This document shows, piece after piece, positions 866 through 40,519 of a DNA stretch of 64,000 bases. How positions within the stretch are numbered: position 1 is the stretch's first letter; every line of letters starts with the position of its first letter. The DNA is taken from NCBI GenBank assembly GCA_015680685.1, contig MNCI01002702.1, positions 63,450 through 127,449 of the forward strand, read 5' to 3'. The notes below the pieces were generated by a model that did not search any database, had not been told where the DNA came from, and was given only the letters and a program-made list of their open reading frames with translations. This DNA comes from Gnetum montanum. Taxonomy: Eukaryota > Plantae > Gnetophyta. The translations under genes were made by a program, and so were the position numbers.

Positions 866-866
866 T

Positions 867-3420: not shown

Positions 3421-3629
3421 TCCAACTAAGCCCTCACCATCACAATCAGTTGAACATATAAACACCTCTGTACCAAATAAAGTTTAGGGACCTCCTTCAA
3501 TCCAAAAATCGAGCTTAATGCACACGGTTATGTTAACACATGCCATTACTGACTAGATTAAGGTGGGCCACCTTCCCAGGAAATTCTCTGATCCTAGAAG
3601 TCCTTTAATCTATCTCCAAGTCACTGGGA

Positions 3630-16111: not shown

Positions 16112-17401
16112 TGATGAAACATCACTAAGAAAATTCATGTTGCAACTTTTTAGCATTGTAACCTTCACCATTAGAACTTGAGGCTGAACTTTATTATAAA
16201 ATGTGAGGTTTGTAGCCCATGAAGTGCAATCTCATATACCTTGAATTTTTGGGGCTAAAAAATTCCTCATAAGTTGTTGTAGCCCCGCTTCCTAAGTGGA
16301 AAAAGCAATGCCATGTCTATATTCGGGCTTAGGAAGGCTAAAAATTCCTTGGGAACTACCAAATTTTGGTTTTTTCATGGGTTTATGTTGGTCATAGCCA
16401 AAACTAAATTGGAGCCACTTACACCCAACATTGGAATTGTTGAGCTTTCATTTTTCCAACATGGCCAACATCATTCCAGCAAGGCCAGTGTGGTCCTAGA
16501 AAGGCAAGCGAGGATTCCATGTGGTCAACGAAGGTTCCATGAAGCCAACAAGGATTCCATGAAGTCGATGAGGATTTCATAAAGCTAGCATAGTTTTCCA
16601 AGGCTAACATGGTTCTTGTGAAGCCAACATAGTTTTCAAAGTTCATTTACTTTTTATAGCACTCAATGTAGTTTTGATAGCCTTAGGGCATAAAAATTAC
16701 CATAAGTGAAAAACTATGCTAAAAATGAGGGCCTATCACACTTGCAAATTACATCAATTTGTTAGCACTCATGGCAGAAATTTATAGCCTCAAATTGGCA
16801 ATCGTATAAAGAATAAAAGCAAAATTTGAATAAACTAAACAAGCTCTTCAACATTCTTGAGCTCTGGAACTTTTGCAACCTTTGGCATTTTTGGAGATCT
16901 TTTGGAGCAAATTGAAAATTGATTGAGCATTAAAAACTCTCAATGTAGTTCCATAACATCAAAAGGTCAAGTGCAATAACCACCACTTCACAACTAGTGT
17001 TACAGATCCAACTTGAGAACCAGTAAGAAGTTTTGACAATTGAATCTAGGAAGTACCTAGATTGTGAGGCTGACTACAGAACATAAGCTACTACCTTCAA
17101 CAGTCTTCAAGCTTCATCTATGTAGCTCCCTATCCACTTGGGCACATTAATTTGTACACATTTGGACTCTATACTTTCAATAGTTTATTAGTGCAATAAA
17201 TTTTATAGTTCATTTATTGTGCAAGTTTATTCTACATTTAAATTTTGTGCTTTCTCTTAAATTGGATTTGGATTTTTATTTAAATTATTTAATACCCGTT
17301 TATGCTTTTGAAGTCTGTGGGTGATCGACAAGACCATCCATAGTGCCTTGGATCCTCTTTCTTGGGGACCCTTGGGATCCAAGGTTAAACTATTTTCATC
17401 A
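16112..17401 (+). repeat. Tat 5' LTR (1290 bp) containing a 20-bp tandem subrepeat at ~16500-16600
   Basis: TGATGAAA...TTTCATCA; 16112-16785 colinear with 41608-42280. Confidence 0.88.
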
Positions 17402-18232
17402 AAGATCTTTGGTTTTTCCAGATTGAATTTTTCTGGCGCAATAGTTTCTGCTGCTAGAAGGATGACCTTTGCCCAAGTTCTTTGCCTAAATCTTGTATTG
17501 CCATTGCTTGATTTCCAGTTTCAATCATTGTCTACCTTTCTTAACATTAAAAAAAAAACTCTAAATTTCACCAAGAAAGTTGTCCATGAAAGCCAACACT
17601 GCCACTCATTCCCTTGCAGTTCCTACTTAGTGTATCAATTGCAAGTGGTTTGGGTGCTTCCAAAATTTTCATAGTAGTTTCTAGACTTCCTAAAGCTAGC
17701 ATACTTTCCTATCAAAACCTACTACTTTATTTGATTGAAATATACCTTTGGTGTACCTTAAAGGCCAACGTTTTTTTCCACTCAATTACCCAACTCCCTA
17801 GTGTGAAATTTCATGAGAAAGACTAGCATGATTCTTCCCAAGATTCCAACATAGTTTTGGGAAAATCAACACTTCACGGTTACCTTTTGAAAACTAGCGC
17901 ACATTTTCAAGGAGAGAGTATTCCTAGTGTAGTTTTGCTAGGTAGAGAAATCATTTATTGCCTACCCTCTAGCATAGTTCTTATTGGTAAAGCAAGCATA
18001 GTTATTTCTACCAATATTAAACTTACCAGATTTTGCTAGGTGCAGTACATACAACTATTTCTACAACCTACACTGCACTTACAGTTGTAGTTCCAACCTT
18101 TGTTACAGCCATAACTATTTACACATTGGGCAATTTCACTTGTTGGAATTTTGAGTTGAAAAGAAAAAACAAATTAAAAACATTGCCAATGCGTTTTAGC
18201 AAATCCATAGTATTGCCCATTAACCTTATCGA

Positions 18233-21200
18233 TATGACCACCAACAAAGCTGCTATGAAGGTGTATGACCTAAGGGATTCGGCTGTGGTTGAGTGTATGT
18301 AATAGCTCAGGAAAAGGGGATAAAAACTAGATTTTACCATTATAAATGAAGATTATATAACTTCATATGTGTTAAGATTCAAGTTGGCTTACTCATCCCA
18401 TGCATAGAAGTTGAGTCCAAGCATGAGTTTGAATTAATTCACAGAAATGGGAAGGAGTACATTCCTTCCTCCTATGAAAAAATACAACTAAATGACATCC
18501 ACATGCACATATTGGCCCAAATGATAGAGATGGATGAACTAGGTGGAGAAACTAATTTAGAAAGTCAACATGAAGAATTAGATGGGTTTAATGCCAAAAT
18601 TGAACCTGATAATTTCATTGGGAGCCTTTTCCAAAAATCGGCTTCCTAGGCTACTGCACCCAGTTTGTCCTCTCTTGCCTCTTCTAGAGGGCAAGTTCCT
18701 TAGCCCTCTTCTCCTATTTACCCTACTATGTTAGGGCCAAGACCCATCATAGTAGCCCACTAGGCACAATTTGTGCCTCAATTGACTTCCATTTTTTCCT
18801 TCGTGCCTTTCACCATGCAGCCTTGATCTACACGATCATCACCTATGGTATTCACCACAGCACACCCCTTTTTCATCCTAGTGGACTCCTCAATAGGACC
18901 CCAAGCAACTTAGGAATCTCACACCCCACTTCCCCCCTTTATCCCTCAACTACTTGCTCCAATGTCATTTTCACTATTCGGTTCCCCTAGAACCATGATA
19001 ACCTTACCTCTTCCCTTTGTACTATAATCCATTGCTAGGACACAAGCCTCCCACTTTACTTCACAATCATTTGTTCAAACCCTACAACCCACAGAAATGC
19101 CTCAAGGCTTGGATTAGGCCTACCAAATGATCCAAGGCCTTATAAAAGAGTTATGAAAACTTAAAGCCTCAACTATGTAGATAGTCAGGATCATGGACTT
19201 TTATCAAGATGATCCTATTAATCTACTTGTTTCACAAATAACTCTTCCCCTAGGCATTCCCATACCCTAGTTTACAAAGTACAATGATGAGGATGACCTC
19301 AACGCTCACCTCATCACTTTCCACTTTGAGTGCTTGTTGATATAGGCTTGGCCTAATATACCATAATGAGAATCTTTCCTATGTCTCTTGTGGAGAAGGC
19401 CTTAGACTTGAAGACTTGATACCACAATTTGCAAGCCATTTTAAGTACAACTTGAAACCAAATACCACCCCAAATCAACTGATGAAAATCAAATAGGGGC
19501 CCCTTGAACCAGTTCAGAAGTTCATCCAAAGGTGGAATGCTCTAATGAATGAGATTCCAAAACCCATAGTTGAGATCCACCTTCTAGCCATCTTTAAGAG
19601 GAGGGTCAATGACTTTATTACCTAGTCCCATAGTCACTCAATCAAGCCTTCTCATAGTCTAAGAACATAGAAGATGCTTCTAAGGCCAACCATGACCTTG
19701 CCTATGTAGCATATAAAATTAACACACATGAAAGGATAAGGAGAAGGGGAGGTAAAACCATGTAGCCATGGCCACTTTGGCCAAAGACAACAAAACCATG
19801 TAGGGGCCAAAAACAAACCAACACAAGGCCCCTATCATAAACAACCAACCATCAACATCTAGGGCCTCTACATCAAGCAATGCAAGGCCTAACTATGAGA
19901 GGAAGGATCAGTCAAAGTACACTAGGATACTTCTAAAATTGTCTAAACTCCTTGATCAGTTGCTTAAGAGTGGATAGATCTAGTACAAACAAATGATAGA
20001 GAATGCCAACAAGAGGCATGATTGATTATGTGAAATTCAAAATAATCCCACACTTACAACTAAGGATGACTTGCCTACACCTAAATATTTCAAACTTGAC
20101 CATTTTTTCCATTATCATCAGCTACCAAGTCATGATATTGGCTTCTACCTAGCCTTGAAGGATGACCTATAGAAGATGATAGGTAATGAGGAGCTTATGC
20201 TCAATGCCTCTAACCTCGGTAGACTACAATACTAGTCAATTTAGGTCTATAAAGACCCATTAAATGCCAACAACAACCCTTACACCATAGCTACATTCAA
20301 CATAAGCAACAATTGAAGACTTGTGTGGGAGCTGTTTGTGATTTAGATACCTCCTCATAATGAAAAGGACCCTTCAACTTCATCTAGTTCAAGGACTTCT
20401 TTTGTTGTAAGGATATCATCACTAGTTCCTTCCAAAGAATCCTTTGTGATTATAGAATCCCTCTTGTTACAATCAAACCTGCAACTACCATCGAATGATG
20501 TCCTCCCATAGTGGCCAATGTGATGACTTCTTTCGCAACCCAACAACAATAAGAAATCACTGAGCAAATAATGCAAGAAGTCTGCATCAAAGCCTAAAAC
20601 CAAGGATAACAAGTAGGCCAAGTCATGGAAGGAGGTGGGCCCACTTAAGCCTACTCCTATCTCATCCATCCCCATGAGCTCTAATGCTCAGGTTGCTTCA
20701 ACTAGTCAACCAAGGGAGGACCCCAACCCACAAGGGAATGGGAAAGAGGCCAAACCATAATAATTAAAACATGAAGTTGGCATCTTGAGGCACATGAAGG
20801 AAGTCAAAATCAACAAGAATGAGAAGCCATCAGCTAATGACAAAGACTTCCTTAATGCTATGGAATAGGTGAAATAGTTTTTAAAATAGAAGAACACTTC
20901 CCTTAGCTTGTATGACCTAGTAATGACTTCTACTACTTACCATGAGGTCCTAGTAAATATGTTGACTTCAATTCCTATCGATGAGGAAATCCCAACTAAT
21001 GAAGATTCCATCCATGCAATGATGGTTCCAACCTCACCTAGGGAAGAAGCAAAGTCAACTACACTAGTATTATGTGATAGTGAAATCAAGATCAATCCCT
21101 AGGATGGTGAGATAAAAAGGGTTCCTCTCTTCATAACCATAAAGATGGGGCAATACAAGGTACATATGATGCATGTTGACAATGGGATGACCACTAACAT

Positions 21201-21720
21201 TATACCCTATATTATCATTGAACTGTGGTCTAATAGAACACATGCAAAATACCTCTACTTCCATCCTTAAATCCTTTAACAAATCTTGGGTTGCAGTAAA
21301 TGGTTTAATCTTCCTAGATTATGTAGCAGGGGAATAATTCCCCACAACAGCCAACTTCTTGGTGCTAGAAGAGATACCAAGATTTAACCTCATCCTAGGG
21401 AGGCCTTGGCTAGCTTACTTACAAGTAGTTTCCTCATCCATCCACTTAGAAATTCACTTGCCTTATGAGGAAGGTGAAATAATTATTCATGGTGACAGTG
21501 CAGTTTCCTTGGCAATCAACAATGTTGATGTAGAGTAAGGGTTTGAAGTGGAGTTTTAGGAAGAAAATCCTACTGTTAAAAACAAATTCAAAAATCCTAA
21601 TAGACCAGAAGATTGCAAAATCGACAACAATAGGACCATGTATGCACCATGGGAAGAGCTCACCTTTAACGTGATTAGTGAGGGTAATGGGGAGTATAAA
21701 ATCATGCAATGGAACCATAC
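18233..21720 (+). pseudogene. gag: Tat gag-protease remnant
   Basis: FTKYNDEDDLNAHLITF gag motif ~19270; protease-like MMHVDNGMTTNII ~21170 and FNLILGRPWL ~21385; many stops. Confidence 0.7.
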
Positions 21721-22559
21721 ACCTTTCCTTATCTTTTAAAGATTAAGAAACACCTACACTGTTAACATACATTTCATACTCACTTGCCCGTATGTTGATA
21801 ACTGTGTAACCTTCTCTTTTACTTTCTTAGCCTAGTTTAAGCTTTATTTACATGCATCATTTTTTTGCATTACTTTATTTTGCCTTGTTCTAGCTTTATT
21901 TCACACATACCTTATGATTTATTCTTATTTATAGTTTACCTTTTTATGCCTTGCCTTTTCTAAAACATGAAAAATGAAATAATAAATTTTAAAACTAAAA
22001 AATCCTTAAAAAATTTTAAACATAAAACTTACAAAAATTTTTACAACTGGCTAAGGCCTAAAACTAGCAAAACCATGGCCTTCCAAGGCTTTAAACTGGT
22101 GGTCAGCCAAGGCATTAAACTAGTAACTCCTTTATAACTTATTTCAAGTTTATCTTCATTATAGCCCTTATACCTTAGTTTACATTTTATTTTCCTAGCT
22201 AGTTTACATTTTGATGTACCAATTATTGGCTTATAACTACATGCTTTTAACCAACATAGCCTCATAACATCAATAAAATGTATAATGCAAAAAATGCCTA
22301 AAGTTACAAATGTTAAAACATATAAGAAAAATTAAAAATAATGATAATCAAAATGTCCATAACCCATAGCCATAGTTACACAGTGTGAAAAAAGTTCAAA
22401 TGACATATAAACTAAATAAGAGTTCAATGGCTATAGTTACACTACATAGCAATAAAATAAAAAATTAATAAGTAGTCTCCTAACAACCAAAGGCTAAAAA
22501 TAGCCATAACACCATAACATCAACAACAAATAGCCAAGAGCATGATCAAATTGGTGGGA

Positions 22560-25500
22560 CTAAGGTACAACTAGATGGGGAGGAGGAGCATGATCAATGT
22601 TATCACTACTAGGGCTATTACTATCACTTGGTACCTATACTAATCAGAAGAACAAGGGTCTAATCAGTAATCAACAAAACAAGAAACTAAATTAAAAATT
22701 GAACCAAACTAAAATATACTAGAATAAGTAAATTAATTAAAAAATAAAAAAACCTAGTAAGATTTTGGTGTAACATCTTTGGCAAGGAAGTTACAAAGAT
22801 TAGCCTCTAGATGATGGAGAATCTAATCTTCAGGCATGTTGGCCCAATCCACTTCCCCAAGATTAAAACCTGTCAAGATGTTCCTCTCGTTGATGTTAGT
22901 CCATGTGGGTGTCTCTTGTGAAAGGATGGTAGTAGTTTCTTCCCATAAAGTGATGGTGATTTGAGTAGGGGAATCGAAAACAACTAGAGAACCTTTAAAT
23001 AACTTGAAGGCCTTCCCTACATTGATTTCCTTCATGAACATCTCGAACTTGTGCGTCTCTATGGACTACTCCTGTAATCACTTTAAGTAATTGTTCTATT
23101 TGGCCTTGTATTTCTTTTTGTGGTTCTTTTGTGGATAGCCCCACTTAAGGACCCTAGCACAATAGTCCCTCCACTCCCTAGCTTTGTGTCACAATAGGTC
23201 CATATGTAACTTTTTCTTCACAAGGCTCTTGGCAAGAGTAACCTTACCATGGATGGCATTCTAGTAACATTATGATTCAATTTTCTTAGTTCACAAGTAG
23301 TCTCTATTAGTCACCTAGGCTTCTACAAACTCCTTATGATTCCTAAGGTCTCTTATCTCCTCTGTTTGTTGTTTGGTTTTCTTTTCCAACACTACAACTC
23401 GTTCTTAAAGGAATTCATTGGAATGTTAGATATCCCATGAAGTCTTAGCACATGAGAGCACATATTTAGTGATACTCTCGTATAACCTTCATGGAACATT
23501 CTCCACCTTAGGTAATAAGGGGAACAACTCTTCAAGCTTAACGGTGCATTTGGGATCCCATCCAACCTTGGACACTAAAAAAAATATAACAAAAATAAAC
23601 ACATAAAAATAGTAAATAACCAAACATAGCCAAAAATACTTTAAAAAACTAAAACCAAAAGACCAAAAAAACTTGAAAGACCATGGAACAAAAAAAATGA
23701 TAAATACACATAAAACAACAAAATAAATTAGATAAAGTATGCTAGTGTTCTTACCAACATCGGGAATAATTTTTTGTAACTGATCAATAATGTCTTTAGC
23801 TACGCCATGCATAAACTTAGTTTTGTTAGGAAATTCTAGCCATGGTTTAATTTTGAATGTAGAGGTGGATGCTTCTTAGCATGGTTTAGGCACTACAACA
23901 AGTATAACCATTAACTAAGGATCAAAGCCAAATTCCAACATAAAACCATAAGATGTATTACATAAAGAAAAATTCATAAGTACTTGGAAGATCATTTGGG
24001 ATAATAATGTGAGGTTAACCTAATTGTTAATCTTCAAATATGACATCAAGGACATCCAATGTGACATTGGATAGCCCTTCATCCTCATGTTGTTCTACCT
24101 CTACTGTTGTTGTTTGGGCTGCCCTTTCTTGTTGTTTACGTAAAAGAAGAATGAAAATAAAACATAGACCAAGTTAGCATACATTGTCTAGAACAAAACA
24201 ACATGACCATATACTATAAAACATAGATGCAAAATAACTTAAGCAAAAATGCAATTAGAACATACATATAACCACATGATGTGCTTGGCTAAGTTTGATG
24301 AAGAGTTTCTTCAAGGCAAGCTGCTCAACAATTGGTGCTATCTCCTCCACCATAAGCCTATTCAACTTTTCTTTGGCTACATCGTCAACCTTTGAATGTA
24401 ACTCCTTGGCCTTGTTAGCACTTCCATGGGTAACTTGGGGTTCAACCCACATGCTGTCATGGGAAGGACAATGCATACCACTAAAGTACTTAGTAGTGAG
24501 AGACAATGATTTCTTAATATGCTCTGGTAGGTTCTGAGCCTGCATGGTTGGAACAATATGTTTTACCAAAGGTTTAGAGAGTTGGGATGGATCATGACTT
24601 ACACATCTTCCATCCCTCTTCACAACCAAGAACTCCGTGAATCTCCTTAGATATGCTACAAAAAATGCAAAATGCATATGACATATTGTCCCAAGCTTAT
24701 TTCAAATTTTCAGGATCTCCTCTCGTAGCTCAAAATCCAAGTGAGTAGCCTAGTTGAATTGAGCATCCTTGGTGAGGACATTTTTCATGGTTCATGCTTG
24801 TTGAATGCCCAAGATCTTATTCTATGACAGTAATGTGGGGAATGCCTAGGACTGGAATAATAAGTACATGTAGTTAACCCCTATGACTTGGCATTGGTCT
24901 AGGGGCAATCTAGCATGACCACAACAAGTGTTTAGCCATTCTTCCACCTCCTTTTTATGGCTCACCTATTTCCCTACTTTGTTGGAAACCTTCATGTCCT
25001 CACAAGGGATGCCAAAGAGGTCACTAAAGGTAGATTCATTAATGGCCAAGATGATAGGCACATCGTGAACATGAGTGATGAAATTCTTGATTCCTTTGCC
25101 AAAGGAGTCTATGACATTCACCATCTCTAGGATAGGTATGGTTTGGTTAGGAGCCATAAATAAGTCAAGCAAACTTGCATTGGCAATCCTCACTTAGATG
25201 TCTCCATGTGCTTGGCTAGTCAACCAATGCTTTGCTGAATCCACCTCACAAAATTTGAGAGGATAAGTGTCTCCTCCACACATCTTGAAGTGATCACAAC
25301 AATAGTGGATGTAGGTGTAGCCCTACAACACAACAAAAATAGCCCATTAGATTTGGCATAGGTACATCATACGAAAAAAAATGATAAGAAACATAACAAA
25401 TTAAAATAAAACTTGCCACACCAATAAAACTAGTCAAAGAATTAAAGCCTAGATAACTTAACAACTATATAATTAGAAATCATTGGAATTGTATAAAAAA

Positions 25501-27900
25501 ATTTAAACATAATAAATAAATAAAAATTCTAAATTTGGTTACTTGATGAAGGAAACATGGGGACCTTAAGAGGTATATAGGCATGTACGCCAAAATCTAG
25601 GATACCCCACCAACTATGAGCTATCCCGTTAGCTAGGCAGTTATGGTTAGCTTAAGAGTAGCATGAGGTATACCTCTCAAAGTCATCCTTGAGCTATTCC
25701 ATCACTGTGAGCCTTACTACTTGGCTTTTGGCAAAGACCTGTAGTGCTGTGTGAGCCAAGTGCAAGATTTGGTCATTCTTGATCAACCCTTACCCTATAC
25801 CTACAACCATTTAAACCCAAAAAAAATTGTTAAACCATAATTGCCTAGTGAAACTAAAAGATGAACAAAAAAAACTTAAAATTACACTTATTCTTTCAAA
25901 TAGTAGAAAGTGCCAAGAGGCTTTTGGAACAAGGTGTGGACACGATGACTTATCATTAACATATTGTTGGCATTGTACTAAATCAACTTACACATATCCC
26001 AAATTTTGTATAACTTACGTGTGCTTGTGGTGTACATGCCATCATAACAATCATCTTCCACATGAGTGTCAGGGTCATCAACTATGAATTTAATGATGAG
26101 GTTGGTAGAATGGGGTAGTAGGGTCTCCATGATGATAGTTCCAATATTCGATGCCAAGTGTGACTATACAATCACACTAAAGTTCTAAAGCAAAAAGGCT
26201 AAGAACTCCTTGGCCCCTAGCCTATACCAAAGAGAGTCATTATCCAAGATCATATTAGTAGGTAGGGTGTTGGATCCTAGTGTTTGTATGTAGCAAAATA
26301 GCCTAACCAACTCAACCACCACTAGGATAGGCTTAAAGAAGGCCCTGCACAACCCAACAATGACCATTACAACCTTGTGTGACCATAACGAAAATTCAAC
26401 AACTGTTTAACAAAAATTATAAGCATGATGTCAATGTTTTCACACAAGATCAAACAAATAAAATCACAAATTTCAACTAGAAAAAAACAAAGCAAAATTT
26501 AACCAAAAGTTAAGCAAAAACCGAATAGCCCATTAACATCGATGGCAATCTCATAGTAGAAATACACAAAAAATTATAGAAATTTTATGCAAAAATTTTT
26601 AAAAACTATGATAACAAGCCTATACCAAAATTTAACCCACAAAAATAGTTATAAAATTCCAACTCGAACTTGATGAGATTTTGACTAGAAATCCTAGTTT
26701 ACGGTGAAATAGTTGTAGTAAAACTCTAGGAAAAATAGATAAAAAATTTCAAAAAAATTTAAAGAGATGTTGTAAATAACCATTAAAGACCCAAAATATT
26801 CCCAAAAGTATACCAACAGTACCTATAAAATTTGGGAGGCTTGCAGTTTCAAGAGTTGAAATTACAACTGTAAAGGGTAATTCACACTAACAAAAAAAAT
26901 GATAAGGTTTTACTAAAATTTGTTTTCTATGTCTAGGCATTGCAAATACACAAAATTTAACGAAGATTTGACATCAACATTGTAATTTTAGGCCAAGAAA
27001 AAATTCACATGACAACCTAGAACCATTTTGAAACTTTGAGGAAAACCTAGTTTGCAAGAAAATAGCTACAATAAGAGCCTTGAAAAAAATATGAAATTTT
27101 TTTTAAAAAATTTGAAATTGATACCAAACCTTCCCACATAGCCCTAAGGATCCTTAGGAAGTTGGGACATTGCCTAAAATTTTTTTTTTCAAGTGTCAAA
27201 GGGGTAAAACAACAAAAAAAAAAACCAAAAAATCCTTGTTCACTAACTTACAAAAAATTCATAAAAAAATAACCATAAGTCAAAAATTAGTGATTGAACC
27301 ACCAATTTGACCATTAAATAATGAGAAATTACCCTATGGATTTAGAAACCAAATATTCTATCCCTATTTCTTATGAAAAAAAAATTGAAAAGTAGCATTG
27401 CTTTTTGGTAAAAAAAAATAGCAAAAACGTGTAGGGTAGGCTAGATAAAAAATTAAAAATTTTGCACAGGAGGACCCTAAGGCAAAAATAACACTATGAA
27501 CACATGTTTGAAATCTAAACATAACACTTAAATGGTAGAAAATTAAATTTTCTTTGAACAATAGCCTTAAATCTTGTAAAATGCCTAAGTTTTAAGCCAA
27601 AATTGAGAAAAAATAGCTAACCAAAGGCACTTGGAAGTCATAGTTGAATAACCTTCTCTAAGAAAAGGCAATGGTATCTTGGAGATTCCATTGGTAGTAG
27701 CATTTTCCTCCTCTAGGGTTGGGTTTTTTTCTTGTGGATGCTCTTCTCTTGGATATCTTAGGCAAGCAATGGTAGAAAATCTTCAAATATCCTACCTCTT
27801 CCGTGTAGCTATGTTGATCCTTGGTGAATTTAGCAAAAACTACACTTAGGATGGATGGGATTGGAGCCAAAATTAATGGGGAAGCCTTGATTTGAATCAT
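22560..27900 (-). pseudogene. Spliced antisense accessory gene inside the Tat element (plant-transposon/env-like domain plus coiled coil)
   Basis: Co-framed minus ORF remnants (24966-25193 with 24255-24677; 23489-23812 with 22823-23041) separated by AT-rich GT-AG introns, e.g. 23575-23754, 23800-23983, 25323-25542, 25801-25885, ~22660-22753. Confidence 0.7.
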
Positions 27901-28299
27901 TTCTTGTGGGAGATGAGCTAGGAAAATAGATTTTGGTAAAATTACAATGTGAGAAGTATTTCCACACTTATGCAACACCCACACAACTCATAGTGGACTC
28001 CATGTTCATAAGATGAAAGTCAAAACTTTTTTTGGTTTATGGAAAATTTTAAACCAAATTACAATTTAAACTTGGGTGGGCTCACTAGGTGCCTCCTAAG
28101 TGAAGAAACAAAAATCCCAATACAGTGGGATTTACAACCTCTACCCAAAACTACGTTGGGATTAACTCCAAAATAAGCCTTAGAATGGGTTCCAAGCCTC
28201 AACCACTTCCAAAAATCATTTCCTAACCATCCATCCTTAAGTGATTAAAGCCAAAAGAATCCCCATATTAAAATTGGAAATTAACTATGATTACTCGAA

Positions 28300-30200
28300 A
28301 GTCTTAAACATCAAGAATACCCAACACATAGCCAAAACTAGTCATTCTTGAGAAACTACATTGGCCAAGAGAAAAACTATGTTGGCTAGCATAGTTTCAT
28401 GGGGGATGGGAATTCTCACCACTAGCTAAGCTTCTAGCCAACTTTGAAATAATTGCACCAAGTCCCAATCCCTATCCAGAGCCTCTGACAGCCCTGGAAC
28501 CTCTTGAAATTTATCAAAAGATGCGAAAACCCATGATTCTTGGGAAACCACATTGATGGAGCTTAAAACTAAATTGGCCAACATATTTTCCTAAATTTTG
28601 GTCATCATGAGAGTTAATTGAACGTCTAAAAACCTTCAAAGTGGCAAGCCCTAGCCTTTAAACCTTCCTGGAGCCTTTAGTGACCTTGGGATGCTAAATG
28701 AATAGGCAAAAACAAGGTAAAATTCATCTTAACCTTAAAACTACATTAGGGAAGTCTAAAACTATGCTAGCCAAGGTGGTCCTAGCATGGTTTTTCCAAG
28801 GAAATTTAAGAATGGACCATTAACTAGTCAAATCAACCTCAAAATGTGTCAACCTAACCCTAGAACCCTACCAGAACCTTCAAAGACCACCAAACCATGA
28901 AAATTGACTTGAAAATGACCAAAACTAATCATTTTCTCCAAAACCATGTTGAGGCCTTCCAAAAATACACTAGTCAACATAGTTTTGGGGGAATGTGGCA
29001 ACATCAAGGCTTAAATGACATCTTGAATCAACAATTTTAAGGTTAAATCCTAGCCATGGACCATGGTAACTTTAGAAGCCCAAAAACTTCGTCAATTGAC
29101 CTCCTAAGCTACCTAGAAATTAATATTCTCTTGACACTACATTAAGGAAGGTCAAAACTACCATATCTAGTGTAGTTTTGGTTCTTGAGGTAGCCTTAAT
29201 GGCCCAACCACACTTTGAATGGCTTGAAATTCAATTAAGGAGGCATGGAGAAGATTGGAATCTTGAAGCTTGAAACCAAAGGCCATTTGAACTTGATTTA
29301 AGCATGAACATCCTAATTTTCATCAAAACTATGCTGGATCCTCCAAAAATTATGTTTGCTAGTGTATTTTTTAGGGGGATGACCATATCAAGGCTTCAAT
29401 AATCTCTAGAATCGACAATTTTCATCCTAAACCCTAGCAATGGGCACCAGAAACCCTAGGAGTTTGAGAACTTAGTCAATTGATCATCAAAACAATCCAA
29501 AAGTCAAGGTTCCAATTAAACTATGCTAGCGGGGATGAAAACTATCCTAGGTAGTGTAGTTTTGATTTCCATAGTAGTTTTGGTGGCCTAACAGCACTTC
29601 GAATGACTTGAAACTTAACTAACAAAACCAAAAACCCTAGATCCTAGAACGAGTTGTCGTTTGGGCTCATTTTGACCATGAAAAGATCAAGTTTTATCAA
29701 ACTATGTTGAGGCCACCAAAAAGTATGGTAGTGGGTGTAGTTTAGGGATTCAAGGCTTCAAGCTTCAACTTTAGTGACTTGTTTGGCCTTTGAATTACTA
29801 GGCTACAACCCTAATGCATTTGTGCTACCCTATTAAGTTGATGGAGCACAAATTTCAACCCTGAGAAGCCACAAATCAAATTTTTCCATGAAACCACACC
29901 AAGGTCATAGAAAACTATGCTAGCTAGTGTAGTTTTTAGCTTTTTGCGATATTTAGTATCTTTAGTAGGTCAAACCAATGCAAAAGTTGACCAATCTCCA
30001 CTCTTGGTCCACTATGTTGATATCTCAAGCCATTAGAAATCCAAAACTTTTTCTAACAAATCTTGGAATCTACATTTTGGTAGAAACTATGCTGGGGCCT
30101 ACCAAAACTACACTAGCTAGCATAGTTTTTGAAAGAAGCCTCATTTTTATCTTCAAACAGCCTTAAAATGACCTTCCCAAGTGCCCAAACTCCCCTATCG
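28300..30200. repeat. Degenerate ~192-bp tandem array (~10 units), each with an AAAACTAYRCTAG/CTAGYRTAGTTTT palindrome
   Basis: Palindrome cores at ~28373, 28565, 28758, 28961, 29155, 29346, 29538, 29719, 29911, 30103. Confidence 0.8.
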
Positions 30201-30259
30201 ACCTTGTAGCCTTCCATCATGGCCTGCTAAGGCCTAAAACTAGCAAAATGTGACTTTGA

Positions 30260-31150
30260 TTGAACAATATTGGTCATGTTTCATTTCCATGTTTTTGACC
30301 TTAATAGGTTTAACCTTGTTCTATTTTGTTTTGACTTGTTTTGACCTTGTTACACATTGTTAACCTTTATTGTTAGATCATTTGGTGTTATTTGGCTTCA
30401 TTTTCATCATTGTAGCATCATTTGGTTTTGATTTTACCAAATGTTTTATCATTTAGCATCATTTAACCTTAGTTGACTTGATTTGAGATTATCTAATGCC
30501 ATCCGACATTAGCATGACCTTGTTTGACCATCCAGAACATCATTTGATGGGGTTTGACCATCATTTGGACTTCATTTGATCTGATTTGTCATCATTTGGT
30601 TATCATTTGGCTTTGTTCCACCTTAATTGGCCTTTGATTCACCTCATTTACCTTGTCCTCTATCCTATGACCTGTGTTAACCATGCTTTAACCATGATTA
30701 ACATCATTTGATTGGGCTTGATCACCATTAGGTCATCGTTTTGCCCCTTTTGATCATCATTTAGCCTTATTTGATCATCATTCAGCTTTCATTTGGCCTT
30801 ATTCCATATTATTTCACCCTTAGTTCATCTTATCCACTTTATCTTTTCTTTGATGGCCTCCATTGACCATGCTTTGACCCTGATTGATGCAATTTGATGG
30901 AGTTTGACCATCATTTAGCTTTCATTTGATTTTGTTCTACCATCATTTAGCCTTCATTTAACCTTATTTTACACTATTTAGCCTTTGTTTCATCCTATTT
31001 ATTTTAACCTACCTCTTATAACCTTTGTTGGCCTTATTTGAACCTTTTTTGACCATTGAAGTAACGTATCTTGGCTTATCCATGCATTATTACTAAAGTA
31101 CTTTATATTATTTTGGCATTATTTGCTCATTTTATCACAAAGGTGCCACT
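30260..31150. repeat. T-rich low-complexity array of CATCATTTG/GACCTT-like motifs
   Basis: Dozens of degenerate short repeats. Confidence 0.7.
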
Positions 31151-31359
31151 TAATGTGATTATGACTGATACATAGGATTGGAGTATGGATACTTGGGAGT
31201 AATTTAGGTTGCCTTTGAGCCTACACAAGCCTCATGGTGATGTTAAATAATTCATTGACCTTAATTACTTAGATTTTTAGCTTAAGAGCCCAGTTAACTA
31301 CGTAGGCTCGATAGAGAAACCTCTTGAGTGACCAAAGCACCTAGTTAAGACCCTTGACC

Positions 31360-32540
31360 TTGAGGTTGGTGATATTATTGAAGACTCTCTAGTTGAGGTT
31401 CCTATCACGACACATAGTGGTGAGGAGAAAACACTAAAAATAAGTTCCTCATTGGAACCTCAACAGGCCCGAGACATCACCAAGGTCCTCCAAGACAACA
31501 TTTAGGTCTTTGGTTGGTCATATGAAGAAATGCTAGGTCTTGATCCACGCTTGATGCAAAATAATATCATACTTGGTCCTAGTATCAGGCTAGTTAAGCA
31601 AAACGTTCACAAGATTAGACTAGATTTGGCATAGGCAGCTCATGTTGAAATCATGAAATTGTATTAAGCTCATTTCATTTGAGCTATTGATTATGTAGAT
31701 TGGGTGTCTAACATAGTGGTAGTCCCTAAGAAAAATGGGAGTATACATACTTGGTCCTAGTATTAGGCTAGTTAAGTAAAAAGTTCACAAGATTAGACTA
31801 GATTTGGCATAGGCAGTTCGTGTTGAAATCATGAGATTATATTAAGCTCATTTCATTTGAGTTGTTGATTATGTAGATTGGGTGTCTAGCATAGTAGTAG
31901 TCCCTACAAAAAATGGGAGTATATATATTTGTATTGATTTTTAAGACTTGAATAAGGAAACTCTCAAAGATTACTTCCCTTTGCCTATTATTGACCAACT
32001 TATTGACACTAAGGCTAGACATGCCTTGCTATCCTTCATGGATGGATTCTCAAGATACAACCAAGTTAGGATTAACTTAGAGCATCAACTTTGTATGACC
32101 TTCATAACCTCTTGGAAAACCTTTTGCTACATCATGATTCCCTTTAATCTAAAGAATGTAGATGCAACCTAGCAATGAGCAATGACGTATATCTTTAGTG
32201 ATTATATGCTAGGGTTACTTAATGACTATGTGGATGACATAGCTATTAAATCCAAAATGGCCAATGATATGCACATGATCTTGACCTCGTGTTGAAACGA
32301 TGTCTCAAGTATGAGCTTAGGCTTAACCCTAAGAAGTGTCTCTGGTATCAAACCCAGCAACATGCTTGGCTTTGTAGTATCTGATGCAAGGATATGGGTT
32401 GATCTAAATAAGGTTAAAGCCATATCCCACTTGGGAGCACCAACTAACCTTAAGAAGCTCTAGGGACTACTAGGTAGATTATAATTAATCCGTAGGTTCA
32501 TTGCTAGGCTTACAAATAAGTTACAATCCATGCAACAATT
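31360..32540 (+). pseudogene. pol: Tat reverse transcriptase remnant
   Basis: VFGWSYEEMLGLDP; WVSNIVVVPKKNG; KDYFPLPIIDQLID..LLSFMDGFSRYNQV; YVDDIAIKS. Confidence 0.92.
31571..31926 (+). repeat. 178-bp tandem duplication within the RT
   Basis: 31571-31748 repeated at 31749-31926. Confidence 0.92.
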
Positions 32541-32860
32541 ATATTCATGTTGTTGAGCTCGACATACACATCCGTTCTCACTTCAATTATAGATTAAATA
32601 ACCCCTATTGGATAGCCTTAGTTGACTGATGGTTCAAGAATTTTAAAGATGCCATAATCACACAAGCTAAAGGTAAATTAGTATTCGATGCATTGGTTGT
32701 CACACTTCTCAACTTTGCTCTTTCTCTCTAGGATCATAATTTATCAAGTAGTTTAATGATTACTGTTTATATTCCTTTAGATATGTAATTAGGAACTCTA
32801 TTAGTCTTTAAATTATTTCAAAGTGTAAGTATCGAAATACTATTACCCTTTGGAGAACAG
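32541..32860 (+). pseudogene. 30K-family movement protein core
   Basis: YIHVVELDIHIRSHFNYRLNNPYWIALVD*WFKNFKDAII...NFALSL*DHNLSSSLMI fits the caulimovirid MP pattern (YIH..L.D.R..F.D..NF..SL.D..L). Confidence 0.78.
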
Positions 32861-34039
32861 TAAGTTTCTTGTGGTACAACTAATATAGAATATGGATCAA
32901 CCCTCAACACCAAAGATCTACCGATCTATACCCTGTACCCTTAGCTGGATAGTACATTAGAGGAATTCTATGAGCATTTCATGCCTAAGAAGTCATCTCA
33001 TGATTTAGGAAAATAACATTATTAGGTTTAATTAAAAACATCGAGGTTTACTAAAGAAGACCCATTTAATCCTTTAGCTTAAGGAGAATCCTACCTCCTA
33101 TCCAAAACCCTTCTACCTTACTTCTAGGAAGAAGATCCTTCCAAGAGCTATCCAAAAAGGATGAATGAGGAAATCTAGTTTCTAAAGAAACCATTAGATG
33201 AGTCTTCAAGGACCTAGGAATTACTTACGATGTTAATAAAATCATAGGAAAAAATCCTAAAAAAACCTTTGTAGATACAAGAACCTATTCTCATTAATGA
33301 GTCCTTAGGACCATTGAAAACTAAGCAAGTAAGGATTGCAACTCTAGAAGAAATTTCTAAAGGTAAGAAACCTATAAAAGAGACTGAGGATACTACATCT
33401 ATAGTGATAGTGCTTTAGAATCCTATTCTCATTACTCTACCATAAAATACGATCACCAATACCACTGTTCCAAGTGTGATGCCTTGTTAAAAATCAGTAT
33501 GAACACCTTGAGTAATAAAAATGGTGAGCCTATTACTTAGAGTAAAGAATCCAAATGAAAAGAGACGGAAGAAGCCAATAAACTTAGAGAAAAGGTTCAT
33601 ACTCTTTTTCAAAAACTAATAGTAGATCTATTCTCTAATACTATTTGTATGCAAAATTGAGCAAATAATATGCTTAGTCAACTTTTTATGAAATAGTACT
33701 TAATAGATAATAAAGGAGTTAAAAGTAGAAACAAAATAGATATGATATATGCTAAGGTTAAGCTCATTAGTAATAAAAAATTTTCTCCTAAACAAAAACC
33801 TAAAATCCCATATCATGGTATTCCAGAGTATGGCACCAATATAGATTCACCTAGTTCTTAGACACAACATAAACCAAAATATACAAGAGAATGAAAGGAA
33901 AAATCTTGAGGAAAACAAATACGTAAGGTCCTATTATTATGCAAATAGATGAAGAACTAGTCATAGGATCAGATGAAGAATCACTTCTTCAAAATCCTGG
34001 CACTTATGATGAAGATCCACAAGAGTATCAAGTTATATC

Positions 34040-34900
34040 CTCTAGACCTATTAGTGAATGAGAATTAAAATTCAACATCAATAGACTCTCACCCTTAGAA
34101 AGGCAAACATTGATCGATAGGATCTCTGGATTTATTGAAAGACAAGTCATTCTAGATAAGAATATTTCTAAACATGTCATACAAAATACTATGTTCGATT
34201 TCACAGGAAATCTAAGGTGTAGGTGGAATTAGATACACCGATACATTATAAAGAAACTTTTGACTAGTCCATCTCTCTTATTTATTAACGCCATTACAAA
34301 AGAATTTATAGGTAATAAAGAAAATTATATCATAGAATGTAGGGATATGTATTTTTCCATTATATTAAATAGGATTTAGGACACAGAGGCATTCCTAAAT
34401 CAAATGGAAGATTGGTACTACCACAGAAAGATAACTCATGACAAATTCGCTAAAGAACATTTAATATGCACTTTCCCATGACCATTTGTTAAGAATATCA
34501 ATTAGAAATCAAGTTTAGAGAATGGTCTCTGGATGATATGAGCTTTAATTACATTAAACAATTGATAGGAGACATCAACCATGATCTTTGTAGAGATTTG
34601 CAAGAACAAATAGTAATGAAATAATTAAACAACCTAATGGGAAGATCATTCTGTTACAAGATACTTCAAAAACAACAATGGAAATGAAAACAAGAACCTT
34701 GTTGCTCCAAACAACATCGTAGATATTGGAAACCTAGGAAGCCTAGATGGACTAAACATCCTTCTCATCCACAACCACAAAAAATGTTCTGTGGCATGTT
34801 CAAACGTTGAAAATCCAAACTCCCTCATGGACAAATTTAATGATTCCTTTATTAAGGAAACTATTTTGCTTGAAATTTTCCAAATAAGGGCTAAGGTCCC
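34040..34900 (+). pseudogene. Caulimovirid coat protein remnant
   Basis: FNINRL..DFTGNLRCRWN..ITKEFIG pattern; decayed zinc-knuckle-like segment ~34840-34885. Confidence 0.6.
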
Positions 34901-35679
34901 AAACAAGCTAATTTTATTAAGCATTACAATTTATCGAAACAATATTATGAGTTTATGGAAGATGCATCCATCCCTTTTGAGCAAGCTAACATTTACATTG
35001 AATCTAATCAATATTATGATGGTGGTATCATCATCAACCCTAACCCTCTTTCTTGTGAGGGGGGAGATTGTGGTAATGGAGATTCTGAAGATTTTGATGT
35101 ATTCTATTATGCCATGAACTGACATGGTACCAAAAGACCATTATGTAGGTTGATAACCTCTAGGTCAATGTATGCCTCAGACTTGGAAACCTCTTGAAAT
35201 AAGTGACTTTGATCCCTCAAAAGATGATTCAATCTGCCAAATCATATGAAAATAGTTGATTAACTTATAAAATCAATTAGAAGAAACAACCATAGATGAT
35301 ATCAATAGGATTATGACTCTCAAAAGAAGGGTCAAATAAAAAGCCCAAGAGCCAAAGGAACAAAGGGAATTAATCTTGGAAAGGACATGGAAATTCCTAG
35401 ATTCCCAACCATTAGAATCTGAAGAAGAAGAAGAAAGTCTTGTGTCTAAGCTAAGAGAAAACCTTGTAGAGCAACTGAGCAAGAAGCAGGTAACTCCTTT
35501 GAATGAATCTATAATACAACAACATAGGATAGCTCAACTCCATAAGTATGTCCAATGGGCTACCAATGAACTAGAAGAACTAGAGAAGCTCAAAGAAAGC
35601 TACCAATGATAGAAATATCACGATGACTCTAGTGCTATGCCTATCAACATAGTAAATAAAAATAGTAGCCTTACTACCT

Positions 35680-37520
35680 TACCCATGTGTACATTCCTGG
35701 TTAAATTTAAAGACTACAAGACTTACCTCACAGATGCACTCATAGATAATGACAGTGAAACTAGTTTCACTAGCTCAGTGAAATATCATCCCATCTCACT
35801 TCTGGAAAAGAAAAGGCAAAACATATGTCACGTTCAATACCTAGAAGGGCCCACTTGAATACCAAGCTAGTATCCCAATCAAAACTTTAGATGATAGATT
35901 AATATATCTAGAAGTATATTGTTTTGATATCAAGTCTTATAATTTGTTATTAGGAACAGACAATTTAGCTAGATTAGAACCTTATATGATAGGAAAGGAT
36001 TATATCCTTTTAGCTAATCATATTTTTAATAGGATATATAATTATAAGAAAAGATTTCAAACTCTTCATCATATTAAACCAACTACTAAATCCTAGGTAA
36101 TAAATAGTGTCAAAAAAATGAAAGGAACAACTTGAACAAGTTCACACCAAACTCATGACACTAGCTAATGAAGATCCCACAATATGCAGACATAAAAAGG
36201 AACATTCGTACAAGATAGAACTTAGAGAAGACATAAAGATTAAGGCTAAGGCACATCACATAGGTATGCCCCCATCCCTAAAGAGAGAATGTGATGCAAA
36301 AATACAAGTACTCCTAAATATAAAACTCATTAAGTAGAGTACTAGTATGTTTGCTTATGCAACCTTCTATGTCAATAAAAGAGTAGAACAAGTCCATGGG
36401 AAAAAGGAGTTACTAGTGAATTACAAGCCTCCTAATGAGCTCATCAAAGTAGTACAACATCCTATATCAAGTAAGGATGATTTGTTTGAATGATTGCTCC
36501 ATACTGATGTATATTCAAAGTTTGATTTAAAATTTGGATTTTGGCAAATTTAGGTAGAAAAAGAAGATAGATGGAAGACCGCCTTAACAGTCCTAGGAGG
36601 CCTATATCAATGGATTGTGCTTCCATTTGGAACCAAGACAACCCCTTCTATCTTCCAAAAAACTATGGACGAAATCTTTGAATAATATTCATTTATTATG
36701 GCATATATAGATGACAGTCTAGTCATGAGCAAAACCCCACAACAACACTTAGAGCACCTCAATATATTTTATGATATTATGGAAAAAAAATGATTTAGCA
36801 CTCTTTCCTACAAAGATGCAAATAGCAAAGGATACTATCGAATTCTTAGGATTAAAAATATCCTAGGGATCCATTACTTTGCAAAACCATATTTTAGAAT
36901 CTATCAAACATTTTCCCAATGAATTAAGGGACAAAACATAGCTGTAGAGGTTTTTAGGATGTATCAATTATGTGTTTGGATTCTATGAACATCTAGCTCA
37001 AGATAGAAAGCTATTGAATGAACAACTTAGCCAAAACCCTCCACCATGGATCCAAAGACACACTGATACGGTCTTACAAATAAAAGATAAATGCAAAACC
37101 TTACCAAAGCTACAACTACCAACTGATGGGACTTTAATATTGGAAATAGAGATATCTAATGATTTCTAGGAAGCAACCCTAAAAGAGGAGAAAGATAAAG
37201 TAATTAGAATTTGTAGATATGCATTCGACAAGTTTTCTGAGACTCAAAAAAATTATCATAGCACACACAAAGAATTACTTGCCATCATTAAGGGTGTAGA
37301 AAAATTTAGGCTCTTTTTATAGCATACCCATTTTATAATTAGAAGCGACTTAAAACACTTTGATAAGTATTTAAGCTTGATGGCCTTGAATAAAGTCGCA
37401 CACACTAGGATTATAGGATGGACATTATATTTGGCTAATTTTGATTTTTCTTGTGAATATATTGATGGTACTAAAAATAGCTTAGCTAATTTCTTAACCA
37501 AAGAGTCCCAACTCTCTATG
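35680..37520 (+). pseudogene. Caulimovirid protease-RT-RNase H
   Basis: DALIDNDSETSF; YSKFDLKFGFWQI..LYQWIVLPFGTKTTPSIFQKTMD..YIDD; ICRYA..KNYHSTHKELLAIIKGVEKF..EYIDGTKNSLANFLTKE. Confidence 0.92.
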
Positions 37521-37561
37521 TAATTACTAATAGTACTTCTCTCTTGTAGATTTGCTAATAA

Positions 37562-38320
37562 ATGAAGGATGGACTCTTCATTCTTCAAGACGCCTTAGAA
37601 GTTGCAGATTTGGAGAAAGTTATAAGGCTACATTAGAATAAGACAAAATCTTAAACTATCATGAATTTAGTTTTATGAACTTTTGTTGTTATTTAGACAA
37701 TCTAAATAATTATCTCCCACAGTCCTGTATATACCATAAAATACTGTTCACTTGTTCTGAAGATAGAACCAAGTCCTATCTTTATCTATCAACCCACCTA
37801 GAGCTCTATTCACTACAATGGCCATTTGACCTTAATATCCTCATGTGGCCATATTTTCAGCCAACTCCCTATCACGTCTATACTATCAAATTAAATCCTT
37901 GGAGAAGCTATGGAAACCCTTCTGAAGGATTTTGGACTTGGTGGTCAAATTTTGGGCATTCACCTACCCATTATCCTCCTTCCTATCCCCTTGATTTATT
38001 TTTGAGGCATAATGAATATCATGGAGATTATCTATTCTCCACAGATCTTGATGTCAGAGAATGACATTTTTGTGAAGAAAGTGTCACACTAAGATACTTT
38101 CTAGAATCCAATATTGGTAAAAGAACATATTAGCAGAATCCATGGTAGCAGGCATTCTATCATGATATCTATACCAACAATCTGATTAATATCCAAGCCC
38201 ACTGTGCTACTCATACTATTATTGTAATAATTCTCAATCTTTGCACCCTAGCTCTTTGGGTGGATCAAATGAGAAGAGAAGGTGCATGTGATCATGACAT
38301 CTATCAAGTCAAAAAACCAT
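37562..38320 (+). pseudogene. Caulimovirid accessory ORF of unknown function after RNase H
   Basis: 129-aa ORF 37675-38064 rich in W/Y/P, with apparent extensions past stops. Confidence 0.5.
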
Positions 38321-38554
38321 GTTCTCCATAATTTGTAAGGGATTGATCTAAATCTGATAATGATTCTAGTTGACTCCATGAATAGTAAAAGGTGCCTTGT
38401 ACAATAAAAGGTGTCTTGTAAATTAACACTTGTGAAGCTACAATTGTAAAGTCTATTTGAGGTTATCTCAAATCTAATTATATTGTTTTCCACTATGTAA
38501 TAATGTGGTGTGAGTTGGAAGTCACTTAGAAGGATTAAGAGGTAGTTTCCTCTC

Positions 38555-38563
38555 CTATAAATC
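38555..38563 (+). promoter_or_regulatory. Probable pregenomic-RNA TATA box of the caulimovirid
   Basis: CTATAAAT after the last ORF, in the expected intergenic position. Confidence 0.55.
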
Positions 38564-38979
38564 GAGTCGTGCTGCAACACTAAGAGGCATCGAAGAATGA
38601 GAGATCAAAAGAGCTGCTCACTACACCTTTCAAGCATTCTGTTTCTCAAAAATCCCTTAGTGTGCTGAGAGATATCGAGAAGTAGAAGTCAAGAGGTTCT
38701 ACACCTTGCAACTTTTGAATGTTCTATTTCTTAAGCATCGCATAGCTTCTTCTTGTTTGTACTCTACCTCTGGTACTTTGAATAATATGAACAAGGATGT
38801 CATTTGCAACGTCTCTCTATGCATTATTGCTATTGTTTTCCATCGTGCCATGAGTATTTCCATTATTGTAAGTATGAAAGTTTGTAAGAAAAGTGATTGA
38901 GTAGTGAAGTATGAAGGCCAAAAGGATCCGAGCGATTGAGTAGTAGAGTAGGAACGCGAAAAGGATCTAGGCAAGAGTT

Positions 38980-40519
38980 GAGTATGAAGGATTAATAATA
39001 GGAATGATGATAGCTCATGACTAAGGAATCAAAAACCTAATGATAAAGGGTGATTCATAACTTGTGGTTAACCAAGTAATGGAGGTTTACGCCTACAAAG
39101 CTAAACATTTGTAACCTTATTGTGACCTAGGTAAGAAACTAATGTAACAATTTACAGATGTTGGTATCCAACATATACCTTAGACTAAGAACACGTTAGT
39201 TGATGCCATTGTAAAGTTAGCCCTAAGCATGATGCCTGATGTGTTTATCAAATTACCTTCTTTAACTGTGAATTGTGCTATTCCCATTACGTAGAAAACT
39301 AAAGGTACCTCCATAGCATCTGTTAATACGACTTCTCAAAAAGAGTGGTATGACAACATCAAGTTTTACTTGAAAGATGTTGAATCTCTATAGGGCTTGA
39401 ACACTTCTCAAAAATATGTTGTACGTAAAAGATCAAAACAAGATGTTATTTTAGGTGATAACACATTATCTCAATAGTCCTATGATGACATATTATTAGT
39501 GTGATTGGGCAAAACTAAAGCTTGCACAATCCTTGAGAAAGTTAATGAAGGTATGTGTGGGGGGACATATAGGACCTAGAGCCATGGCTACAAAGATGAG
39601 ACAACTAGGTTATTATTGGTCCTATATGAAAAGTGTTTTCTTGCAGTAAGTTAAATCTTGTGATACTTATCAATGGCATAGTAACCTAATACATGTGTTA
39701 CCAATTAAGTTACATACTACTTAGATAACTTGGCCATTTCACAAATCCTTCATCATCACTACAACCAAATACTTTACAAAGTGAATTCATGTTATTTCCC
39801 TAAGGAAAATAACATCTCAACAAGTCTATAAATTCATACTTGATAACATAGTAAAGCATTTTGACATACCTTTGACCATAGTCACAAATAATGGACCACA
39901 ATTTAGTAGCCAAGAAACGTAAGTCTTTTGTTAATACCTAGGCATCAAGCATTCCTTTTCATCACCATATTACCCTCAAGCTAATGGAAAGGATGAAGCT
40001 AGCAACAAGGCCATCATAAACTTACTTAAAATGATGCTAAATAATAGTAGACACAAGTGGCATGAGCAACCTATCCATGCACGTTGGGCCTATTGAACTG
40101 CAACTAGTGTAATACCAGATAGCCTGGTTTATGGATCTGAAGCTATTTTGCCTCTTAAATTGTAGGTTCCATTGCTCAGAGTGGCTCTATCGGACTTCAT
40201 CAATAATGAGCAGAGCAAGGAGCTATGTACCATTACCCTAGATTCAATGGAAGAGTAGCAGGTACAAACAATCACTCCTATTAAATGGTACAAAGAGAGG
40301 TAGAAACAATAGCATCACTATGACATGAACAAACGAAAGATTAAGGAAGGAGGCCTAGTTCTTAAGGCTATTCATGAACATGTAGAGAAGTTCTCAGCTA
40401 ATTGGGAGGGGCCTTTCTTGGTCATCAAGTCCTATGACAATAAAGCCTTCAGGGTGGTAGACATGGATGGAAATGAATTGGCCAATCTGGTCAACCATTC
40501 CTATCTAAAATCTTATTGA
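38980..40519 (+). pseudogene. pol: Tat additional RNase H (C-terminal half) and integrase
   Basis: EYEGLIIGMMIAHD*GIKNLMIKGDS*LVVNQV..QHIP*TKNTLVDA; TNNGPQF; SSPYYPQANG; KFSANWEGPF. Confidence 0.9.

Follow-up and report, generated by a model that had tools for sequence, protein, structure and literature searches.

What fills the long spacer between the protease (PR) and reverse transcriptase (RT) regions of a decayed long terminal repeat (LTR) retrotransposon of Gnetum montanum is the question raised by contig MNCI01002702.1, of which 64,000 nt (the window; all positions are window coordinates) were analysed. In a first-pass annotation, made from the sequence alone, a multi-intron antisense gene had been proposed for this spacer, and its length had been put at about 9.5 kb. 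The separation measured 9,415 bp, and its minus strand does have the anatomy of such a gene, with eight exons and seven T-rich introns, six of which have GT..AG ends. The reading that we regard as fairly probable is that of a repeated eight-exon antisense gene, likely a native accessory gene of a Tat subfamily of Ty3/gypsy elements, and likely located inside an Ogre-like PR-RT intron of 9.4 kb. The gene and the region upstream of it are referred to below as the cassette.

In the best model the exons comprise 3,124 coding bases, or about 1,040 codons (Table 1). Seven minus-strand blocks with a GC content of 0.20-0.28 and a T content of 0.45-0.60 alternate with blocks of 0.35-0.44 GC and 0.20-0.33 T. 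Introns 1 to 7 are 1250, 89, 220, 138, 91, 180 and 119 bases long, and the only one without GT..AG ends is intron 2, the donor of which has decayed. For introns 4 (24265-24128) and 7 (22753-22635) the splice sites were selected among candidates to fit the phase. Most of the intron positions proposed earlier could be kept, with adjusted borders for introns 4 and 7 (the positions just given were the best) and for intron 1, which ends at 26403; intron 5 had to be redrawn as 23983-23893 instead of 23983-23800, so that 23892-23755 is exonic. Five of the seven exon joins are in phase, three of them unaided (1-2, 5-6 and 6-7) and two with the selected sites (4-5 and 7-8). A possible intron in the 5' untranslated region of the antisense gene, AT-rich and with GT..AG ends, was noticed by eye at 28070-27916 of the minus strand.

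Table 1. Coordinates of the antisense gene, the spacer and the host element in the window
Feature	Position	Strand	Remarks
Exon 1	27653..27770	-	start codon decayed, position inferred
Exon 2	25890..26402	-	FCP1/NIF (HAD-fold) phosphatase-like domain without catalytic aspartates
Exon 3	25543..25800	-	out of phase with both neighbours in this copy
Exon 4	24266..25322	-	about 350 codons, without known family; the part of the cassette with most repeats in other contigs
Exon 5 (acidic)	23984..24127	-	acceptor picked for phase
Exon 6	23755..23892	-	in phase with exons 5 and 7
Exon 7	22754..23574	-	coiled-coil-like stretch by eye; diverged relative transcribed
Exon 8	22560..22634	-	24 codons and stop
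Upstream region (putative promoter)	27771..30210	-	15 copies of AAAACTAYRCTAG (at most 1 mismatch), often as inverted pairs
Putative sense intron, 9,415 bp	21761..31175	+	GT..AG, both ends in phase 0
Three degenerate copies of a ~30-bp tandem unit	22050..22127	+	left cassette border
Tandem unit sharing 23 identical bp with 22050-22072	30226..30248	+	right cassette border
5' LTR	16112..17401	+	starts with TGATGAAA at 16112; end placed at the inverted TTTCATCA, 17401, from the terminal inverted repeat
Leader	17402..18200	+	5 copies of the element motif AAAACTAYRCTAG (at most 2 mismatches), 0.5 expected
Decayed gag and protease	18240..21760	+	weak Pfam gag matches; tblastn in PR region
Reverse transcriptase	31176..32541	+	with 178-bp tandem duplication; Pfam and tblastn
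Caulimovirid-like insert (6.4 kb)	32560..38970	+	takes the place of gypsy RNase H and the beginning of aRH
aRH (3' part) and integrase	38974..40516	+	RVT_3, rve
3' LTR, truncated (cut at ~42280)	41608..42280	+	purine tract before it

In the chosen frames, exon 2 has 3 stops in 170 codons, exon 4 has 7 in 350 and exon 7 has 12 in 273, a load comparable to the decay of RT (10 in 268), integrase (INT; 10 in 319) and PR (4 in 170). The other frames of exon 4 contain 22 and 28 stops. When the depletion of stops was compared with that in the best of three frames of shuffled sequences, p values of 0.001 (exon 4), 0.029 (exon 2) and 0.19 (exon 7) were obtained. The stop at 26165 is a sense codon in relatives (about 97% of the DNA depth), and the stop at 22825 is a sense codon in the RNA of relatives; these two reading frames are therefore confirmed. 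The gene copy in the window is dead.

On the basis of the FCP1/NIF motif, a profile of viral NIF proteins was built and compared with exon 2, for which 19 of 130 NIF-pattern loci were kept; seven of the 19 members were checked in Pfam, and all seven matched PF03031. Exon 2 scored best among 1,281 window targets (11.5 bits, E 0.011), a score reached by none of 2,000 shuffles, and it was still first, with 8.6 bits, after removal of the closest profile member. With hhalign the value for exon 2 versus NIF was 69.8% (at most 2.2% with 150 shuffles), and the pairwise E value to the best of the 19 proteins was 2e-7. The alignment to FCP1/NIF extends over about 95 residues of the HAD core. None of the positions of the catalytic motifs, DxDxT and DD, is occupied by aspartate in this copy. 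Because all catalytic aspartates are changed, which is beyond the likely effect of decay, exon 2 is read as a pseudo-phosphatase; judging from these alignments it probably encodes an inactive FCP1/NIF-like phosphatase fold. A JmjC (KDM4/KDM5) reading of exon 2 was rejected, as its score against a 42-sequence profile (42 of 114 JmjC-pattern loci kept) was at the shuffle median. Exon 2 had no match among 208 candidates of 301-2,000 residues, its matches in the PDB were at chance level, and single-sequence structure prediction gave a pLDDT (predicted local distance difference test) score of 41.

The peptide in which the first-pass annotation had seen an env-like or plant-transposon domain is part of exon 4, and this assignment was not borne out: there was no match in Pfam and none among 1.84 billion representatives. 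Exon 4 as a whole matched nothing either by word search (861 candidates) or by HMMER in the same set of representatives; single-sequence AlphaFold prediction gave a pLDDT of 40, and Foldseek found no match. No cassette exon matched env-like, plant mobile (PF10536) or plant-transposon domains in Pfam, and the FCP1/NIF-like stretch of exon 2 is the sole domain that could be recognized. A pattern for the plant mobile domain gave a single locus, which was not used, and that family was judged by Pfam alone. The coiled coil of exon 7 was recognized by eye.

That the gene belongs to the element is suggested, indirectly, by the 13-bp motif AAAACTAYRCTAG. All 21 window matches with at most one mismatch are inside the element (15 upstream of the antisense gene, 4 in the LTRs and 2 in the leader), and none occurs in the 37.8 kb outside it. 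With up to two mismatches the counts for the LTRs and the leader were 3, 5 and 3, versus 0.3, 0.5 and 0.2 expected. Matches between the upstream region and the LTR are of motif length only, so that the former is no LTR copy. No metagenome contig contained the motif pair. The tandem unit found at both borders of the cassette runs into longer arrays in other copies, as seen from loose contig ends. Tied to the element by the shared motif, the antisense gene is likely a native accessory gene of the Tat subfamily; the earlier proposal of an accessory gene of the element is supported by its multiple copies and by the motif common to LTRs and leader.

The copies were studied in sequencing runs, 8 of 21 listed runs containing the window or part of it. 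Contigs of four DNA runs were aligned to the window at 80% likeness and evaluated in 30 bins. Three runs, labelled as three organisms, yielded 28,374-33,797 contigs each, over half of them less than 90% alike, and covered all 30 bins in each case; the fourth, from another organism, gave next to nothing for cassette or RT. Summed contig depth, which for this tool does not equal copy number, was 1,700-3,200 for exon 4, 1,240-1,850 for exon 2, 620-980 for the core of exon 7, 56-324 for the upstream region, 3,400-5,800 for PR and 26,000-41,000 for the start of RT, whereas near-identical single contigs had 6-8. From these depths we conclude only that the segment is repeated in its entirety and accompanies the family in different species. 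One contig with a depth of about 320, present in two runs, joins 23577 to 23962 and skips exon 6, with a side of just 25 letters; in a common relative the exons may be arranged differently here.

The spacer itself has the ends expected of a sense intron. The PR frame stops at 21760, before a GT, and the RT frame opens at 31176, after an AG, both in phase 0, so that splicing would fuse PR and RT. For other copies the summed depth is about 900-1150 at 21730, just 60-77 at 21770 and 2600-4750 at 31165. By these depths the spacer borders seem to behave as a coding edge (21760) and a constrained acceptor (31175). According to the available part of PMC6317226, some of the transcripts of pea and Medicago Ogre elements lose the PR-RT gap by splicing as an intron, and over Ogre elements the mean length of this gap is 274 bp; the present spacer is 34 times as long as this mean. 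It is likely a PR-RT intron like that of Ogre, expanded to 9.4 kb. Degenerate T-rich tandem repeats of 10-32 bases fill its 3' part (30320-31060).

Four RNA runs, about 2% or 26% of each read, were also aligned to the window; among the listed runs that contain the stretch there was no RNA run. Poly(A) noise on A-rich introns made up most of the aligned RNA reads. A diverged relative of exon 7, matching 22813-22849, was present in all four runs (5, 4, 27 and 23 reads). At its loose end 20 of the next 30 window bases match and, as judged by eye, the frame stays open; at a second loose end, at 23186, 21 of 30 bases match. In two stranded-looking runs the first mate was on the plus strand in 9 of 9 reads, whereas poly(A) noise on plus-strand A-runs had the first mate on the minus strand. 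The mate orientation is opposite to that of the noise, and the RNA of the relative therefore runs in the direction of the gene. The first-pass annotation had envisaged a giant sense intron and an independently transcribed, spliced gene; the in-phase GT..AG ends around the spacer and the strand-correct RNA of a relative agree with these two proposals, the splicing part of which was not matched by any joint, sense or antisense, in the four RNA runs.

Besides the missing joints, several observations weigh against the reading proposed here. The reading frame of this copy is not kept across joins 2-3 and 3-4 (in DNA contigs of other copies the length differs by 2 bases at 25257, not far from the beginning of exon 4), and stop depletion is significant in just two of the eight exons, 2 and 4. 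The sense donor scores weakly. True RNA coverage of the region of this copy is almost nil, and the expressed relative, which matches at 80% or more over just 37 bases, could be a host gene. As to the domain, NIF was the second idea tried on exon 2, the Pfam family PF03031 itself did not match this exon, and addition of exon 3 did not raise the NIF score. The motif was chosen by eye from the spacer, so that only its LTR and leader counts are independent. In the four DNA runs no long contig links PR, cassette and RT, and no second full-length copy was found. Depth in the first RT bin exceeds that of exon 4 about tenfold, and in three of the four runs 22070 is joined to 30218-30225 by contigs that leave out about 8.15 kb; the short side of these contigs is just 18-29 letters and lies inside the tandem unit, and they may be array artefacts. 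Cassette-free relatives likely exist, and the data are best explained by a larger family of which one subfamily bears the cassette.

That the cassette is a separate mobile unit nested at this place, either a DNA transposon that is non-autonomous or has the accessory gene alone, such as a CACTA, MULE or Helitron derivative, or a parasite of the tandem array in the intron, seems to us quite unlikely. Multi-intron accessory genes are usual in DNA transposons, and the 23-bp direct repeat flanking the cassette, the joints that skip it and the richness of the window in nested insertions would all suit such a unit. In contrast, AAAACTAYRCTAG is common to the LTRs and the leader and is found on one side of the cassette only, cassette and PR/RT are present or absent together across the four runs, and a few diverged contigs cross the left border near 22127. 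As to the possibility, raised in the first-pass annotation, that the segment is a DNA transposon of its own, the window search found no convincing terminal inverted repeats paired with a target-site duplication and no CACTA or Helitron ends (decay could hide short ends), and no transposase family, including Transposase_28 (PF04195), was matched by Pfam in the cassette; PR-RT copies without the cassette likely exist, as stated above.

Less likely still is that the gene is a native passenger, a captured host gene that was amplified with one subfamily and has no role in transposition, the motif being bound by a host factor. FCP1/NIF is indeed a host-type domain, here without catalytic residues, and RT relatives greatly outnumber those of the cassette. 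However, relatives keep the frame open and one of them is transcribed, and exons can be aligned across many diverged copies whereas introns and upstream DNA fall off, a weak argument in view of the caveat on depth. The gene might also be native without splicing between PR and RT, with pol expressed from its own start or from an internal promoter in the motif-rich region and the spacer being intergenic. The weak donor, an ATG 9 bases after the acceptor and the lack of a joint in RNA are compatible with this arrangement, which we consider very improbable in the face of the in-phase GT..AG, the T-rich ends, the conserved acceptor region and the precedent of Ogre, as described in the available part of PMC6317226.

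If the gene is a native accessory gene inside a PR-RT intron, the element would make three RNAs. An unspliced sense RNA of about 20 kb would encode Gag-PR and be packaged, carrying the cassette whole into new copies; the introns of the cassette would survive retrotransposition because they are antisense to the packaged RNA. Sense RNA spliced over 21761-31175 would encode the full polyprotein, and a minus-strand promoter at 27.8-30.2 kb would yield an mRNA spliced to about 1,040 codons. The arrangement could have originated when a gene with introns was captured, at the DNA level, within the tandem array of the PR-RT intron. The protein would consist of a probably inactive FCP1/NIF-like domain, a helical domain without known family and a coiled coil. 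An FCP1-like fold could dock on the tail of RNA polymerase II. We tentatively suggest that the protein may be a nuclear trans-activator drawn to AAAACTAYRCTAG clusters, which would keep the LTR and its own promoter transcribed in a VANC-like manner; by analogy with VANC21, a protein recruited by the motif would favour transcription of the 20-kb element RNA. It is more doubtful whether an intron-borne pseudo-phosphatase fusion recognizes a private motif in LTRs and promoter and has RNA polymerase II or chromatin as its site of action, in what would be sequence-specific anti-silencing of a retrotransposon.

The domain order PR, RT, aRH, INT marks the host, as far as sequence can tell, as a Ty3/gypsy Tat element of Ogre/Retand layout. 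The aRH domain that defines the Tat clade was detected at 38974-39273 (Pfam RVT_3, E 1e-14), after RT and immediately before INT, the gypsy RNase H being missing in this copy; this position between RT and INT differs from the TatI/TatII/TatIII layout, in which aRH is before RT or after INT. The element would measure about 21 kb if the insert were removed. Window self-comparison showed 83% identity between 16114-16783 and 41610-42280 of the LTR pair; the target-site duplication is unreadable because the 3' LTR is cut at ~42280. In this decayed copy no TGG of a primer binding site (PBS) complementary to tRNA-Arg was found within 5 bases of the presumed LTR end. The gag matches (Gag_p24_C, E 0.004; Retrotrans_gag, E 0.095) did not pass the Pfam cut-off. 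No Pfam PR match was obtained in the window, and the PR region at ~21.1-21.76 kb matched two of nine Tat polyproteins tested by tblastn (E 2-3e-4). RT, detected after 31175, matched RVT_1 in Pfam (E 0.0015) and showed 37-45% identity by tblastn; its tandem duplication is at 31568-31931, the halves being 91% alike. INT matched rve (Pfam, E 6e-11) and was 67% identical to one protein, P0001, and 28-35% to the other 119 proteins among the matches listed. With 28-35% identity to named angiosperm proteins, the family is therefore distant from annotated angiosperm elements. P0001 is a chimera of a Pol_BBD domain and a partial aRH, which begins at nearly the same residue where the aRH of the window resumes; used as a query, it matched no viral contig.

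Where the caulimovirid-like insert stands, the element lacks ~235 pol residues (gypsy RNase H and the first part of aRH), and the insert may join halves of two different element copies. It is decayed and matched the movement protein family MP (E 3e-4), RT_RNaseH (E 3e-16) and RVT_1 (E 1e-20) in Pfam. A second LTR pair, 14914-15852 and 52461-53403 (78% alike), with a gypsy pol at 42317-45400, encloses the Tat element, which appears to have been inserted into this outer gypsy element. Another gypsy element at 250-9911, with LTRs about 91% alike and pol at 4.3-7.1 kb, is a relative of the outer element (67-68% to the stretch at 42.3-45.4 kb). At 56118-56557 an 86-base unit is repeated in tandem four to five times.

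The element resembles Ogre in having aRH beside INT, GAG-PROT split from RT by a likely intron, tandem arrays and a size inside the Ogre range of 7.7-24.1 kb (PMC6317226, available part). In the same text the Ogre gap is gene-free and extra open reading frames (ORFs), mostly with the plant mobile domain, are 5' of gag or 3' of pol, whereas here a putative spliced gene is in the gap; the INT identities given above and the lack of a detectable tRNA-Arg PBS are further differences. The element may be called Ogre-like in its PR-RT split and is not assigned to Ogre itself. With Retand, Grande and RIRE2 it shares an antisense accessory gene (a likely one here) with its own promoter (gene23 in Grande; putative here) in a Tat element; unlike here, theirs are found after pol and before the 3' LTR, have been presented as ORFs and are mostly Transposase_28 (PMC7264820 and PMC11963269, available parts), and the word "intron" does not occur in the available text of PMC11963269. 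The distance from INT to the 3' LTR is about 1.1 kb here, unlike the long Retand region with its antisense Transposase_28 ORF. Orchid Ogre-related elements with an AlkB demethylase ORF are likewise Tat elements that captured a host enzyme domain and kept it; as far as described in the available part of PMC9289625, their cofactor residues are kept and Gag and Pol form one ORF, whereas here the domain is a different one, looks inactive and belongs to a gene with seven introns. Compared with FCP1/SCP (NIF, PF03031) C-terminal domain phosphatases, exon 2 is similar over the core, whereas DxD and DD are not aspartate in this copy and the domain is fused to others without known family.

VANC21 binds a dense, element-private motif in the non-coding parts of VANDAL21, a Mutator-like DNA transposon (PMC5735166, available part). 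An accessory protein (a predicted one here) together with a dense, family-private short motif in non-coding parts is common to both systems; VANC motifs have one orientation, in contrast to the inverted pairs here, and the likeness is one of motif distribution only. In a literature search of papers accessible without subscription, neither a published intron-containing antisense gene between PR and RT nor a published NIF domain in an LTR element was found, and NIF is absent among the extra-ORF domains listed in the available part of PMC6317226. The present gene is likely a Tat antisense accessory gene, one that is unusual in its place, intron number and domain.

In the part of PMC6317226 available, extra genes of plant LTR elements are catalogued just 5' of gag or 3' of pol, and the screens for single ORFs of at least 250 codons described there would overlook a multi-exon gene inside pol. 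Annotation pipelines would take such genes for host genes or break the element up. What antisense accessory genes do is still open according to the available text of PMC7264820; here the gene brings with it a candidate target motif and a candidate domain. If read correctly, the layout shows a retroelement route for carrying a whole intron-containing gene through reverse transcription.

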